Positions 1-10,450 of a stretch of 64,000 bases of DNA are shown here, one piece after another. The stretch spans positions 3,723 to 67,722 of the forward strand of contig JAYTCQ010000354.1 of NCBI GenBank assembly GCA_043736395.1. The letters are read 5' to 3'. The position numbers were made by a program, and so were the translations under genes. Position 1 is the stretch's first letter, and each line of letters begins with the position of its first letter. Under the pieces are notes generated by a model. That model did no database searches and was not told the DNA's origin. It was given only the letters and a program-made list of their open reading frames with translations. The stretch is from Blastocatellia bacterium (GTDB lineage: Bacteria > Acidobacteriota > Blastocatellia > RBC074).

Positions 1-50
1 AATAAGGGAGAATTGGTGCACAAAAATGTTCATAGACTAAAAATAAAATT
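1..50. repeat. Copy 1 of a conserved ~48-nt intergenic motif (aaTAAGGGAGAATTGGTGCaCAAAAaTGTTCATaGACTAAAAAtaa) with a GTTCATGAAC-like palindromic core.
   Basis: Direct alignment by eye to copies at 3789-3836 and 10403-10450 (~85% identity). Lies 3' of the OMT gene at the window edge. Confidence 0.6.
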
Positions 51-116
51 CATGCGAGGCATGCGCAGTGCCTGTGAGCGCAGGCGCGGCGCGGCCCGCA
101 TCAAAATGACTTGGTT

Positions 117-1166
117 CTAACTTGGTTTGCCTTCGACAACGCTGACAGTTGATGGCGTGGGCGTGATGGATCTCAGTTGAAATCCCGCCTGCGCTAACAA
201 CTGTTCATACTCTTCTGCCGTGCGTTCAATACCACCGGGAAGCGTCATCATTGCCATATCAAAATCTTTCGCCAGGGAAGGATCGTTCCCGGTTGGCACG
301 ACAGCTTCGACAAGTAAGAGCCTGCCGTTGTTTGGAATAACGCTCCGACAATGACTCAGAATTTGAACGCATTGTTCGTCTGTCCAATCGTGAATGATAT
401 GGCGGAATACATAAGCATCCGCGCCGCTGGGAATGGACTCAAAAAAACTTCCTTCAATGACTGTACAGCGGTCGCTCAAACCGTTAGCCTGCACATTGTC
501 GCGCGCCCGTCCGATGACATGACCGAGGTCAAACAGGATGCCTTTCATGGCGGAATAACGTTGCAGTACGGCGCTAATTAATGATCCATTGCCGCCACCA
601 ATATCAGCTAAAACTTCAATGCCACTGAAGTCGTAGGCCTCAAGCATCGCGCCGGTTTCGTATCCGTGGATCGCCGTCATCCCCGCATCAAAAATCGGGC
701 CAAGCTCGGGATGCGTTCCGATGTAATCGAAAATCGGTTGTCCGAATACTTTATTGAAGCCGGGTTCCCCCGTGAGGGCCGAATGATGCAGGCCGTCCCA
801 AGCCGAAAACATGCGATGCATCATTTGCCCGGCAGCGCGGAATGAATTCTCGGCTTCAGTCCTGAGACAGCTTGAAAGCGGCGTGTGATCAAACTGGTGC
901 GGGCTAACTTCTTGAAACAATCCGTGGCTCGCCATGAATCGCAGGAGGCGATAGAGCGAACGTTCGTGCGTGCCTGTCGCGCGGGCGAGCGCTTCGACTG
1001 ATTGAGGTATACCTGCCTCAATTGCATCGGCAACACCCAGTTCAGCAACGGTGCTAAGAGCGCGACTGAGCGCAGCACTGAACATGATCTGCGTTAATTT
1101 TTCAGTTTCTATCTGTGCCATTTTATTTCCCTTTCGAGTGTTATAAACGTTCTGCTTCAACCACAC
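117..1166 (-). CDS. Class I SAM-dependent O-methyltransferase (Methyltransf_2 family with N-terminal dimerisation/winged-helix domain).
   Basis: 349 aa; 'LADIGGGNGSLISAVLQRY' glycine-rich SAM-binding motif I; N-terminal helix-turn-helix-like dimerisation region typical of plant/bacterial OMTs. Confidence 0.75.
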   Translation of the reverse strand: MWLKQNVYNTRKGNKMAQIETEKLTQIMFSAALSRALSTVAELGVADAIEAGIPQSVEALARATGTHERSLYRLLRFMASHGLFQEVSPHQFDHTPLSSCLRTEAENSFRAAGQMMHRMFSAWDGLHHSALTGEPGFNKVFGQPIFDYIGTHPELGPIFDAGMTAIHGYETGAMLEAYDFSGIEVLADIGGGNGSLISAVLQRYSAMKGILFDLGHVIGRARDNVQANGLSDRCTVIEGSFFESIPSGADAYVFRHIIHDWTDEQCVQILSHCRSVIPNNGRLLLVEAVVPTGNDPSLAKDFDMAMMTLPGGIERTAEEYEQLLAQAGFQLRSITPTPSTVSVVEGKPS

Positions 1167-1353
1167 TCATTGGCGAAGGTATCGGAACGATGTGGGTTAG
1201 TTTGAATCCGGCAGCGACGAGCAACAACGTCATCTGGCATCCAATATGATCGGCGAGTTCGAGTTGATGCGTTTCATAAGCAATCTCCTTGTTACTCGAA
1301 TTGCGGTTAATTAGCGGCGGCGAATGCAATTATTCACCGCCGCCAGATGCATT

Positions 1354-1860
1354 CTATTTTTTCGGCGATGCGGATTTCGTGACCTGTGTGCGCACGACTT
1401 GCCATTTTCCATTTCGCTTCAACCAAATATCGGTGTAGATATAATGTCCACTGTTGTCTTTGCCCTGATATTGGCTTTTCTCGGTCTGACCGTAGGTGGC
1501 GATGGCAGCGTCACTGACCACTTTGACCTTAAGATTGTCGAGTTCGAGCGCAGTGAATTTGTAGCTCCCTGATTTAAACATCTCCACGACCTGCGCCTTC
1601 GTTTCGATCTCACCCATTGGATCAATAAACGTAAAGTCGTCTGCTGTAATGCGCTCCGAAAATGCCACATCGCCTTTGAGAATGGCGGTCGTCCAATCCT
1701 GTTCCAGCTTGGTGATTAGTTGCTCGGCGTTTTCGGTTGGCGTGGCCGCTGCTGATGCAGAGGCTGCGGCAGTTGCGGTCGTTTTTTGATCCGGAGCAGC
1801 GCAGCTAGTAAGGGCCAGGGCTGCAACGAAAAACATCATAATGCTGATCATTCGTCTCAT
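1354..1860 (-). CDS. Secreted lipoprotein, DUF4440/SnoaL-like (NTF2 fold); paralog of 5130-5630.
   Basis: Signal peptide with lipobox-like 'LTSCAAP'. C-terminal '...SGHYIYTDIWLKRNGKWQVV' aligns with the same motif in the 5130-5630 product. Confidence 0.55.
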   Translation of the reverse strand: MRRMISIMMFFVAALALTSCAAPDQKTTATAAASASAAATPTENAEQLITKLEQDWTTAILKGDVAFSERITADDFTFIDPMGEIETKAQVVEMFKSGSYKFTALELDNLKVKVVSDAAIATYGQTEKSQYQGKDNSGHYIYTDIWLKRNGKWQVVRTQVTKSASPKK

Positions 1861-1958
1861 TGGGACTCTCCTTATTCATTCGTCTCGTTGAAATATTGCC
1901 GCCGCCAACGCCAGTCAGCGGCGACGTGATTTGCAATGGGGTGAGGACTGATTTACAA

Positions 1959-2279
1959 CTACTGTCCAGGTGCGCGATAACTGACCGTCTTCTTCGCTGC
2001 CTCGTCAATTTCTTCGGCAGTCAGCAGCACCGTCACTTTGATGGCGACTGCCCCGGCGGCGTTAACAAACATCGAGAGCGCAGCGGCAGTGACGTTGTCC
2101 GGCAGATCCGCGATGACATAGACATCAGTATCGCCAAAGGCATAGTAGAAAGCCTCTACAGTGCCGCCGACAGAACCAAGCAATGCCTCAATCGCAGCAC
2201 GGCGACTGGTGCCTCCTTCTTTAAGCAGTCCTTTTACTCCCGCTCCGGCGTAGTTGCCTTGAATTAAATATTTGGCCAT
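1959..2279 (-). CDS. GYD-domain protein.
   Basis: 106 aa; 'MAKYLIQGNYAGAGVKGLLKEGGTSRRAA...GDTDVYVIADLPDNVTAAALSM' matches GYD family pattern. Confidence 0.6.
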   Translation of the reverse strand: MAKYLIQGNYAGAGVKGLLKEGGTSRRAAIEALLGSVGGTVEAFYYAFGDTDVYVIADLPDNVTAAALSMFVNAAGAVAIKVTVLLTAEEIDEAAKKTVSYRAPGQ

Positions 2280-8300: not shown

Positions 8301-8542
8301 TTTTACTCTCCTGGGTGAAGATTGAACATAATTTCATTGGGAAAAGGGGGGAGTTGAGAATGAATAGTTCACATCTGAAAAATTATTGATTGAGATGAAG
8401 TTAACCAACTTACACTAGTGGAATTTAAGGAAGTTGGCAAGATCACGGTTAAATCAAACTCAGACCGTTTCAATCGGTACCTCAACCCAGACGGTTGACG
8501 CGTGACCAATTGAAACAGTCTGGTGAAAGATTAATTTTTTAC

Positions 8543-9511
8543 TTATTGCCGGTAAGCTACCCACTGCGCATCCATGCGATCTGACTGACCTAGCGTGAGT
8601 TTGAACATGCAGGCATCATCCGTGTAATCCATAAAATTCGTGATCGGATCAAGGCCGGCTGACGTGCAGGTATCTCTTCCGGTCGGACAACCAAACGCAG
8701 AAGATTTTTCCGCCGGCGTATCCGCCACTAAATCACCGCCATTCGTGGTACTGGCGGCGCATCCGCCCTGGAAGGTGTGATAGAGACCCAACCAGTGACC
8801 TACTTCATGCGTACCGGTGTCGCCCAAATTGTAGGGAGCAGCAGTCCCACCCGGCAGCGACGAAAAGAGGCAAACAACGCCATCATTCTTAGGGTTGCTG
8901 ACATAGCTCGACGGGAAGGTCGCCCATCCCAGCAGTCCTCCACCAGGGCTATTGGTGTAGAAGTTCAATGCACCTTTTGTTCCCCTCCGTAGCGCATTTT
9001 TCATCTGTGCTTCGGCTGTCGTTCCAGGCCCAGCCGTAAACCAGGAGTTGTTCACAGTCCTATCCGTGCTAGCAAACTGGAACCGGAACGGCGTATTCGT
9101 ACCGCCCGTTACGCCGGAATAAGCATCATTCAAAACTTTGAGCTGGTTAGTAATCTGTGCATCCGTGACATTTCCCTGTCCTATCGTGTTGGTGATGATG
9201 TGGAAATAGACAGGGATAATGACACTGCCTGCCGCTAATCTAAGTCCTGAATCTATACCGATGTTTTTATTGCCACCGTTCCCACCTTTTTCGGCATCGT
9301 CATCCCGCACGCCGCAACGAAGCCCGGCATCGACAAAATCTTTTTGCGAAACGTAATGTGTTCCGTCTGGCCCGATAAAGGTTCCATCCGGTTGATGTCC
9401 CGGGTGTTCGCTTCGTCCTTGCGCATTAACGCTTTGAAAGTAATATCCACTGATCGCTAAAACAATGATCAGACTGATTGCCGCACAAGCAAATAAAGTT
9501 TTCTTTTTCAT
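8543..9511 (-). CDS. Secreted M43-like zinc metalloprotease (paralog of 3997-4977).
   Basis: Start moved to internal ATG ([14 protein letters not shown]..., signal peptide) preceded by AGGAG. '[17 protein letters not shown]'. Confidence 0.7.
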
Positions 9512-9678
9512 TGGGGTTCTCCTAATTGGTTTTATATAAGGTCGATTTATTTTCACTCGACCAACGTGAAGTTGAGGGAGGCGGAAACAAGATACTGCCA
9601 AGCAACAATTTTATAAATTACGTTGGTTGAAGATCGCTGTTCCCGCCTGACATCAGAGAATTGTTGATATTTTTTAGC

Positions 9679-10146
9679 TTACCGCTTTGAGGCTAAATTG
9701 GGTTCTAAAACAATCTCGCGCGCCATTCGTTCCGCCAGGACTTCCCGAATTTCAAGCCGTTCGCGGTATCCTTGCCGTTGCTTATCATCGTTGCCGATGA
9801 CGTTTTGCAATAAGGCATCGGTTTTGTCCAAACTTTTCTCATAGGTTGCGAGGTCTTTGTATTCCGTCAAAAGCATTAAGTTAAAGTCAGTTGCGCCGTG
9901 AGCTTCAGTTTGCAAAATCTTGTACGAAATAATTTGCCCATCTTTTTTCAAGGCCTCCTGCTCTCGCTTCCAATCGCCGGCGATGTAGTTTAGATAAGCC
10001 GTTTCCATACCCGGCTTCATGCGAATATATCCGATGCTCCAAACTGTGCCGTTGCGGTAAGGGCGATTGACTTGTGCAAAGACAACGACGCTCAAAGTCA
10101 ATACCAGAGCGACCAGCAAACTGACGAGGATGCGATTCTGTTTCAT
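9679..10146 (-). CDS. Hypothetical secreted/membrane-anchored protein.
   Basis: N-terminal hydrophobic helix; no recognisable motifs. Confidence 0.35.
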   Translation of the reverse strand: MKQNRILVSLLVALVLTLSVVVFAQVNRPYRNGTVWSIGYIRMKPGMETAYLNYIAGDWKREQEALKKDGQIISYKILQTEAHGATDFNLMLLTEYKDLATYEKSLDKTDALLQNVIGNDDKQRQGYRERLEIREVLAERMAREIVLEPNLASKR

Positions 10147-10402
10147 AAAAATATCTCCTGTTGTTTAGCAACGGAGTGCAAGAGCAAATTAGGTTATTTC
10201 GGCTGTCGCCGCACTCGTTTCAAGCGGCAGCCACCAACGATTCAACTTCCACTGGTGAGGTCATTTTCAGTCAAGCTGAGAGCAATAAATTTCTCATTCT
10301 CTTTTCTTGCTAATGGGTAAAGCGTCAGCCGCGACCAAAGTCCCTCACCTACCACTCCGAAAATTCACTAATAAATTATTGCGCCGATTATTGCTCTCAT
10401 TT

Positions 10403-10450
10403 AGTAAGGGGGAATTAGTGCGCAAAAGTGTTCATGACTCAAAAAAAATT
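10403..10450. repeat. Copy 3 of the conserved 48-nt motif, about 100 nt upstream of the ECF sigma gene.
   Basis: agTAAGGGGGAATTAGTGCGCAAAAGTGTTCATGACTCAAAAAAAA; the upstream 'attgctctcat' also resembles the copy-2 flank 'attgcgctccat'. Confidence 0.6.

Follow-up and report, generated by a model that had tools for sequence, protein, structure and literature searches.

A repeated intergenic motif in a Blastocatellia bacterium as a likely promoter for an ECF43-like sigma factor

Three copies of a repeat of about 48 nucleotides (nt) lie between the genes in the first part of a 64,000-nt stretch of contig JAYTCQ010000354.1 of a Blastocatellia bacterium (this whole stretch is called the window below), and they raise the question of what kind of element a bacterium places three times within one locus. 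The preliminary description of the repeat, made from the letters of the window, considered a shared promoter with an operator, a small-RNA gene and a leader motif. Our analysis supports the shared promoter: the motif is likely to serve RNA polymerase with an extracytoplasmic function (ECF, group 4) sigma factor, and the likeliest such factor is the ECF43-like sigma encoded beside the third copy.

The repeat itself is real. Its copies, at 3-50, 3791-3838 and 10405-10452, are all on the same strand (plus as written), and the 31-nt degenerate core TAAGGGRGAATTRGYGCRCAAAARTGTTCAT has exactly three matches in the window, with 0.00 expected from 100 dinucleotide-preserving shuffles. A window search with a 16-nt core and two mismatches permitted gave no sites beyond these three. 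Over 48 nt, the identity to copy 1 is 83% for copy 2 and 75% for copy 3 (repeat family D7), and the additional flank ascribed to these two copies is confirmed at about 12 nt (family D11, 60 nt, 82%); this flank, attgcgctccat, is a part of the motif, namely its box 3 read on the other strand. A 45-position weight matrix was made from 28 of 29 related instances, and in a scan of the 64 kb the sites of the window scored 55-62 bits (61.8 for copy 3, 54.9 for copy 2) and everything else at most 8; copy 1, truncated by the window edge, falls outside this scoring. Among 20 shuffled sequences, 19 gave at most 4.2 bits and one gave 14.1. The scores are thus bimodal and intermediate matches are absent from the 64 kb, which fits the narrow specificity of ECF sigmas.

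The orientation of the copies is consistent with respect to the genes. The minus strand is the strand of every gene flanking copies 1 and 2, and on this strand each copy comes after the end of one transcription unit and before the start of the next. Read in this way, the motif consists of an A/T tract, box 1 (rTGAACACTTTtG), about 7 variable nt, box 2 (ATTcCCCCTTA), 4-5 nt, and box 3 (aTgAGAGCAa). Checking the genes downstream, as had been proposed, showed that all three copies face minus-strand genes, at distances of 59 nt (copy 2), 258 nt (copy 3) and about 135 nt (copy 1) rather than the 80-105 nt reported earlier. Copy 2, located downstream of the hairpin-plus-T-run terminator (about 3905-3960) of the preceding M43 peptidase gene, does precede the gene of the secreted cytochrome c/Cu-monooxygenase protein, standing 59 nt 5' of its ATG at 3731; this protein of 473 amino acids (aa) has weak matches to the cytochrome c and Cu-monooxygenase C-terminal domains. 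Copy 3 had been assigned to the ECF sigma gene, but it is oriented as copies 1 and 2 are, and so it stands back-to-back with the sigma gene and would drive the divergent 155-aa gene and its operon. The box 3 of copy 1 and its target lie beyond the window edge. Their continuation is found in the metagenome contig L001 (12247-12277), which is 99.99% identical to the window, and the gene presumed to lie off the window is there a second O-methyltransferase gene. This leftward extension was obtained from same-strain contigs (99.7-100% identical) found via a look-up of the GYD protein, and such contigs are of no use for footprinting.

Conservation beyond this strain was assessed in loci orthologous for the sigma gene, collected by exact-protein look-up (L009-L014) and by scanning metagenomes with the sigma protein (L015-L094); the weight matrix found the motif in about 25 of them. 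Of the loci, 33 have both a sigma of 74% identity or more and 200 nt or more of sequence ahead of it; 23 of these contain the motif within 450 nt on the upstream side of the sigma gene, mostly at 92-131 nt and at up to about 390 nt. In all of these 23 loci, as well as in the window, it occupies the strand opposite to the sigma gene (same strand, 0 of 24), and it occurs beside the sigma only where the latter is at least 77% identical. Random placement and lack of conservation outside this genome, which had been named among the grounds for discarding the motif, were not observed in these loci. Copies away from sigma genes were also found, upstream of other genes (in L007, in L020 and at 7143-7113 of L011); that of L011 is orthologous to copy 2 and precedes the orthologous Cu-monooxygenase-like gene. 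Every instance with sufficient downstream sequence faces a gene, and outside the window the distance from motif to gene is 73-285 nt.

The 29 distinct instances align gap-free, with zero indels between the boxes. The core of box 1, TGAACACTTT, is near-invariant (1.4-2.0 bits), its GAAC being invariant at 2.0 bits, and CCCCTT of box 2 is invariant or near-invariant. A separate scan of a genome collection, which did not contain the source genome, with the 24-nt pattern GAATTNGNGCNCAAAANTGTTCAT gave only 4 matches. Three of them (L005 7809-7832, L006 2897-2920 and L008 1986-2009) were rejected as chance matches in one conserved protein-coding sequence of Chthoniobacterales, Sulfotelmatobacter and Elstera metagenome-assembled genomes, and the sole true copy is that of L007. 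A metagenome-assembled genome labelled "Heliobacteriaceae" (CAZLYK01) has a true motif copy together with acidobacterial-type genes, which makes this label doubtful.

Such anatomy, with two conserved boxes, a free spacer and a single orientation upstream of genes, all kept across species next to an ECF sigma gene, agrees with the suggestion of a shared promoter. Textbook ECF promoters have the layouts TGAAAC-N16-CGTA (Bacillus subtilis SigW) and GGAACTT-N16-TCAAA (Escherichia coli RpoE), and ECF sigmas flip out a single base at the -10 position. In the 29 instances, T23 is invariant, and its distance of 16 nt from AAC is the textbook spacing. The -35 boxes reported for RpoE and SigW are GGAACTT and ATTGAAACCTTT, respectively (PMC8103513), and the AAC core with the T-rich tail of box 1 resembles GGAACTT and TGAAACCTTT as quoted in that paper. 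We suppose that the A/T-rich tract, at about -55 to -43, would act as a UP-like element and that TGAACAC followed by TTT would form the -35 element. Of the 16 nt that follow AAC, the middle 7 or so would be free to vary, and the C-rich TyCCCCTTA would form the -10 region, with the CCCC block over the -10 position. Transcription would probably start about 6-8 nt after CCCTTA, so that box 3 would be a semi-conserved start region comprising the start site and the first 8 or so transcribed bases. The remark that the repeat is too long for a simple operator is accounted for as well, since the conserved stretch would be the whole promoter, including the UP-like tract, the -35 and -10 elements and the start region.

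With promoters of the RpoE/SigW type the motif has in common the AAC-core -35 element followed by T's, the rigid distance of about 16 nt from AAC to a C-containing -10 element, the upstream A/T-rich tract and a very narrow specificity; the systems are also alike in a small regulon of envelope or secreted proteins and in a promoter close to the sigma gene. It differs from them in its -10 element, which is CCCCTTA within a longer conserved block (ATTcCCCCTTA) and not CGTC/CGTA or TCAAA, and in the third, semi-conserved box at the presumed start site. A further difference is that the motif is back-to-back with the sigma gene and never in its orientation, so that there is no autoregulation via the motif.

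Other readings of the same conserved stretch were considered. A sequence-specific transcription factor could co-regulate the operons through an operator, with the promoter overlapping it or beside it. The long conservation (about 45-60 nt), which includes box 3 at or past the presumed start, a typical position for a repressor, is compatible with such an operator, and so is a palindrome in copy 2. However, the palindromic core GTTCATGAAC on which the preliminary description relied is perfect only in copy 2 of the window, that is, in 1 of the 29 instances, most of which have 2-6 of 10 self-complementary positions; the operator with a palindromic core is thus not supported. Moreover, neither dyad nor direct-repeat symmetry is present in the motif, and the sequences of boxes 1 and 2 bear no relation to each other. 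A consensus scan found no sigma70-type promoter at or beside the motif sites, box 1 has the AAC core of ECF promoters, set at their usual distance from box 2, and it is the sigma gene, not that of any transcription factor, that is consistently linked to the motif. We consider an operator unlikely.

An intergenic and conserved motif located near terminators might also be a structured RNA, either a small-RNA gene or a cis-acting leader, transcribed from either strand. Nevertheless, RNAalifold gave 0 pairs and 0 kcal/mol for the 29 instances, the fold energies equal those of shuffled sequences on both strands (z from -0.27 to +1.2), and changes in the spacer are not compensated. Rfam had no match at the gathering score in the window and none at E<=1 in 1-10600, and on the plus strand copy 2 meets a hairpin with no T-run after it. 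A structured RNA is therefore hardly to be expected here, and the small-RNA and leader suggestions made earlier find no support for the repeated element.

The plus strand offers one more reading, the start of a small protein-coding gene: AAGGGAG resembles a Shine-Dalgarno sequence and is followed 5-8 nt later by TTG or GTG in copies 1-3. Yet neither the start codon nor the frame is conserved, and 6 of 28 instances contain in-frame stops. Alternatively, the copies could be relics of a local duplication or of a mobile element, as the region has duplicated genes (M43 peptidases of about 80% identity). Against this, the copies are not placed alike with respect to the duplicated M43 and DUF4440 genes, terminal repeats around the copies were not noticed by eye, and the motif is kept at orthologous positions across species despite the diverged flanks. 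Both the coding and the relic explanation appear extremely improbable.

Narrower candidates were rejected as well. The sigma-54 (-24/-12) and Bacteroidetes-type (-33/-7) promoters were ruled out by spacing, judged by eye. A SigR/SigH-like promoter on the plus strand (GGAAT-N14-GTT) has too short a spacer and in copy 2 would be directed against the end of a convergent gene, the tail of which is all that lies ahead of this copy on the plus strand. Box 3 was rejected as a start codon or leaderless open reading frame, because ATG occurs in only about 13 of the 29 instances, the others having ATA, GTA or TTA.

Given that an ECF promoter is the likely function of the motif, the properties of the adjacent sigma are of interest. 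The protein matches PF07638, PF08281 and PF04545 and, at 190-208 aa, comprises the sigma2 and sigma4 domains only. Its longest open reading frame begins at GTG 10488, but the start is probably ATG 10542, giving a 190-aa form, because almost all of its orthologs are of 190 aa. The closest relatives are 85-96% identical and are named by their sources as Blastocatellia or Pyrinomonadaceae (Acidobacteriota). In region 2.2 the sequence LQTTALVNEA stands where the acidic DAED motif would be expected; it is present in 22 of 27 aligned homologs (orthologs and paralogs), and the other five have QPTA, QTAA or QATA. The hallmark of the ECF43 group is that the acidic DAED motif is lacking and that a (Q/S)TTA motif carries the phospho-threonine; its members are inactive until phosphorylated by a neighbouring Hanks-type Ser/Thr kinase (PMC13147305, PMC8999054). 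Judged by its QTTA signature and by the kinase gene nearby, the sigma of the window is most likely ECF43-like, with other kinase-linked groups, ECF59-62, ECF217 and ECF283 (PMC7826278), as alternatives. The kinase would phosphorylate the sigma in QTTA and the sigma would then bind core polymerase and fire the motif promoters, thereby turning on three transcription units whose products are mainly secreted or periplasmic.

The orthologs of the kinase are of 910-954 aa and have TPR or PD40/Tricorn sensor domains, and in L009, L010, L013 and L014 the start codon of the kinase and the stop codon of the sigma overlap; these four loci showed no anti-sigma domain. The sigma of the window is in several respects like the ECF43 systems EcfP/PknT of Vibrio parahaemolyticus and EcfK/PknS of Xanthomonas citri: it has no DAED but QTTA in region 2.2, the Ser/Thr kinase gene is adjacent (and overlapping in most of its orthologs), the loci examined showed no anti-sigma gene, and it would control neighbouring genes. 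In contrast to EcfP and EcfK, the sigma of the window is acidobacterial (Blastocatellia) and known here from sequence alone, its Pfam family being PF07638 and its JGI name "TIGR02999 family". The kinase differs, too, as in the window it has only the catalytic domain, and two genes are inserted between it and the sigma. The inserted genes encode a 125-aa protein and an HNH endonuclease (11183-11913). Counted from MTPERYQ, the kinase has about 358 aa and stops behind its catalytic domain; its alignment with the orthologs is confined to their residues 1 to about 370.

Sigmas that are paralogous to that of the window (53-65% identity) lack the motif, and at the same position an analogous divergent motif is found instead, for example CACTACAGTTTTCGCGTGGCCTTTCCGCTTTAgacagATGAAGCGC, GCCGTTAGCGTTTTTCCGCTTCGTTCACGCCTTAggggATAGAGGCGG or GTGTCGCGTTTCGGAGTCATTTTTCGCCTTAcgagGTGGAAGAC. 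Among the paralog loci L048-L088 it lies upstream of the sigma, on the opposite strand, by about 99 nt (L065), 113 nt (L056) or 103 nt (L080). The -10-like CCGCCTTA/CCGCTTTA and the start box ATGAAGCG are kept in these motifs and the -35-like boxes differ; the start boxes (ATGAAGCG, GTGGAAGA) are purine-rich. A -35 element changing with the sigma paralog, with the -10 element and the start box retained, is the pattern predicted by a cognate sigma-promoter pair. This co-variation is a qualitative one, seen in the promoters. The paralog motifs suggest that the back-to-back arrangement of a sigma and its target promoter is a design of the whole family. It recalls the divergent loci of the general stress response (EcfG/PhyR), where a single short intergenic region likewise holds an ECF-dependent promoter whose transcription unit runs away from the sigma operon. 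However, in those loci both divergent units are ECF-driven, with positive feedback (PMC8103513), and here this would hold solely for the unit directed away from the sigma.

Several observations weigh against the assignment of the motif to this sigma. The dependence on it is deduced from promoter anatomy and co-location, and 10 of the 33 ortholog loci have no motif beside the sigma. The proposed -10 element CCCCTTA is unlike the common CGTC/CGTA of ECF promoters and is unusually long, and the conserved box 3 is a non-standard promoter element that could be the site of a second factor. The instances were collected with a matrix seeded on 8 copies, which makes the information profile partly circular; the sigma-adjacent instances are also defined independently, by position. 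The sensor-less kinase, parted from the sigma by inserted genes, means that the signalling link may be altered; in this strain the kinase-sigma module could be in decay or have been rewired. As to novelty, neither this motif nor acidobacterial ECF43-like promoters were found described in the literature, a comparison that did not extend to the published ECF43 promoter predictions, so that an earlier prediction is possible. Finally, the motif never faces the sigma gene, although ECF sigmas usually autoregulate; when copies on the sigma's own strand were looked for upstream of the sigma as a sign of autoregulation, none of the 24 loci had one.

With respect to the last point, ECF groups that are not autoregulated exist, for example ECF32 (PMC7826278), and the absence of autoregulation is plausible for a sigma controlled post-translationally. 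In addition, a block TGGCTGAG-N10-TGTGCTACTTTTATTG is located at 10469-10502 (+) of the window, between the motif and the sigma start, and recurs in most ortholog loci (reverse-complemented as "...aaagtagcacat...ctcagcca..."). This block is probably a promoter of the sigma70 type that belongs to the sigma gene itself, back-to-back with copy 3, and the sigma gene would be transcribed from it instead of from the motif.

The loci without the motif and the missing autoregulation would also be understandable if the promoter belonged to a different alternative sigma, an ECF paralog or a member of another group, and adjacency to the present sigma reflected conserved synteny only. Acidobacterial genomes have many paralogs of the PF07638 type, and at least 8000 homologs were returned. 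On the other hand, the motif tracks the ortholog group, and the paralogs have their own variants with altered -35 boxes. We regard a different sigma as quite improbable, and the ECF43-like sigma beside copy 3 as the likely reader of the motif.

The positions of the motif elements and of the genes concerned are collected in Table 1.

Table 1. Motif elements, putative operons and regulatory genes. Positions are those of the window or, where indicated, of the alignment of 29 instances.
Feature	Position	Strand	Remarks
Copy 1 of promoter unit	1..50	-	A/T tract 50-39
Copy 1, box 1	32-21	-	
Copy 1, box 2	13-3	-	
Copy 2 of promoter unit	3777..3838	-	A/T tract 3838-3827
Copy 2, box 1	3820-3809	-	
Copy 2, box 2	3801-3791	-	
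Copy 2, box 3	about 3786-3776	-	ATGGAGCGCAA
Copy 3 of promoter unit	10391..10452	-	A/T tract 10452-10441
Copy 3, box 1	10434-10423	-	-35-like, TGAACACTTTTG
Copy 3, box 2	10416-10405	-	-10-like, AATTCCCCCTTA; spacer between boxes 1 and 2
Copy 3, box 3	10400-10391	-	ATGAGAGCAA
A/T tract, alignment	-16 to -5		A/T-rich; moderate conservation
Box 1, alignment	2-13		TGAACACTTTtG; most positions 1.4-2.0 bits
Spacer, alignment	14-20		variable; 0.3-1.2 bits
Box 2, alignment	21-31		ATTcCCCCTTA; most positions 1.3-2.0 bits
Box 3, alignment	36-45		aTgagagcaa; 0.25-1.3 bits
Putative copy 2 operon	117..3731	-	
O-methyltransferase	117-1166	-	copy 2 operon
DUF4440	1354-1860	-	copy 2 operon
GYD	1959-2279	-	copy 2 operon
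Secreted protein, 473 aa, cytochrome c/Cu-monooxygenase-like	2310-3731	-	copy 2 operon
Putative copy 3 operon	3997..10146	-	six genes, then hairpin-plus-T-run terminator
M43 peptidase	3997-4977	-	last gene of copy 3 operon
DUF4440	5130-5630	-	copy 3 operon
Metallo-beta-lactamase fold	5693-6580	-	copy 3 operon
PQQ-type beta-propeller	6675-8300	-	copy 3 operon
M43 peptidase	8543-9601	-	copy 3 operon
Secreted protein of unknown family, 155 aa	9679-10146	-	heads copy 3 operon
ECF sigma factor	10542..11114	+	PF07638 plus region 4; proposed reader of motif
Ser/Thr protein kinase	11996..13072	+	also given as 11945-13072; catalytic domain only; presumed activator of sigma

The genes behind the motif recur in other species. 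Most frequent is the secreted protein of about 150 aa, found in this position in the window, in L013, L021, L023, L031, L033, L036 and L055 and, as a more distant relative, in L026; it has no Pfam family, its N-terminus reads MKxNRI...VNRPYRNGTVWSIGFIRMKPGME, and besides the window at least 9 loci have its gene as the partner divergent from the sigma. The Cu-monooxygenase-like protein of about 470 aa is behind the motif in the window and L011, ScsC/DsbA in L007, L009 and L010, an M43 peptidase in L040 (with two further ones in the window operon), a lumazine-binding/SnoaL-like protein in L027, and an O-methyltransferase at copy 1. Signal-peptide-like N-termini were seen in those proteins that were read, i.e., the family of about 150 aa, the Cu-monooxygenase-like protein and the L040 peptidase, which suits an extracytoplasmic-function regulon. 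Most likely, the motif marks a small conserved regulon of mostly secreted proteins common to several species.

Within the window, the two M43 peptidase genes are local duplicates with about 80% DNA identity (families D2, D4-D6 and D8), and the two DUF4440 genes, both located in the putative regulon, are listed with the local duplications as well. To the left of the window, after the second O-methyltransferase gene, L001 contains at 13743-14069 an open reading frame with a rhodopsin-like sequence (…DAYRYADWLLTVPLLLVELV…), recognised by eye only.

A leader motif does exist downstream of copy 3, but it differs from the repeated 48-nt element. It is a conserved element of the 5' untranslated region at 10149-10238 (-), within the 258-nt leader of the gene for the secreted protein of about 150 aa. 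The element includes a hairpin at about 10201-10232 (GGGTGACTGTTGC-TTGAAAC.AGTGC-GCAACAGTC) whose loop is nearly invariant, and a conserved tract then extends as far as the ribosome-binding site. A search with nhmmer found it in 10 loci, and in the nine with an identified gene it lies upstream of the gene of about 150 aa. RNAalifold predicts 13 pairs for it, and compensatory changes occur in 5 of these. Paired cells amount to 93%, compared with 12-44% in controls with slid partners. The element is without an Rfam match and could represent an undescribed cis-regulatory RNA.

Elsewhere in the window, several repeats were recorded. A long imperfect triplet-periodic repeat (TCATC/TCTTC units) at 31926-32112 would translate, on the minus strand, into low-complexity sequence that is acidic and rich in Asp/Glu, and a 207-nt unit is tandemly duplicated at 43168-43581 (78% identity, family D3), which is probably a repeated protein domain. 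Inverted repeats are located at 61143-61270 (46-nt arms, 85% complementarity, 36-nt loop), at 15864-15952 (38-nt arms, 79%, 13-nt loop) and at 28939-28983, the last being a perfect 21-nt A/T-flanked hairpin that resembles a bidirectional terminator.

ECF-dependent promoters and ECF43-type sigmas are well known, and as a kind of element the motif is ordinary and unsurprising; this particular motif seems to be undescribed. A broader interpretation is offered only tentatively, since taken as a whole it is doubtful. The data would then provide the first promoter code and regulon of an ECF43-type sigma, activated by phosphorylation, in Acidobacteria, this sigma being 85-90% identical across Blastocatellia, with a family-wide back-to-back and non-autoregulated design, a -10 element (CCGCCTTA/CCCCCTTA) and start box in common, and paralog-specific -35 elements. 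The start box (aTGAGAGCAa / ATGAAGCG) would in this case be a new recognition element, where the sigma or RNA polymerase could contact the discriminator and the initially transcribed region or a second common regulator could bind.

Acidobacteria are abundant in soil and genetically almost untouched, and experiments on kinase-activated ECF sigmas have been done in only a few Proteobacteria. The practical value of the motif is in regulon prediction for this understudied phylum: being sharp, it makes the regulon of a highly conserved sigma readable from genomes and metagenomes, including the secreted protein of about 150 aa, M43 peptidases, the cytochrome c/Cu-monooxygenase-like protein, ScsC/DsbA and O-methyltransferases. 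The motif promoters are ready reporter constructs for finding the signal of the kinase, and the combination of paralog-specific -35 elements with a common -10 element could yield orthogonal sigma/promoter pairs for synthetic biology.

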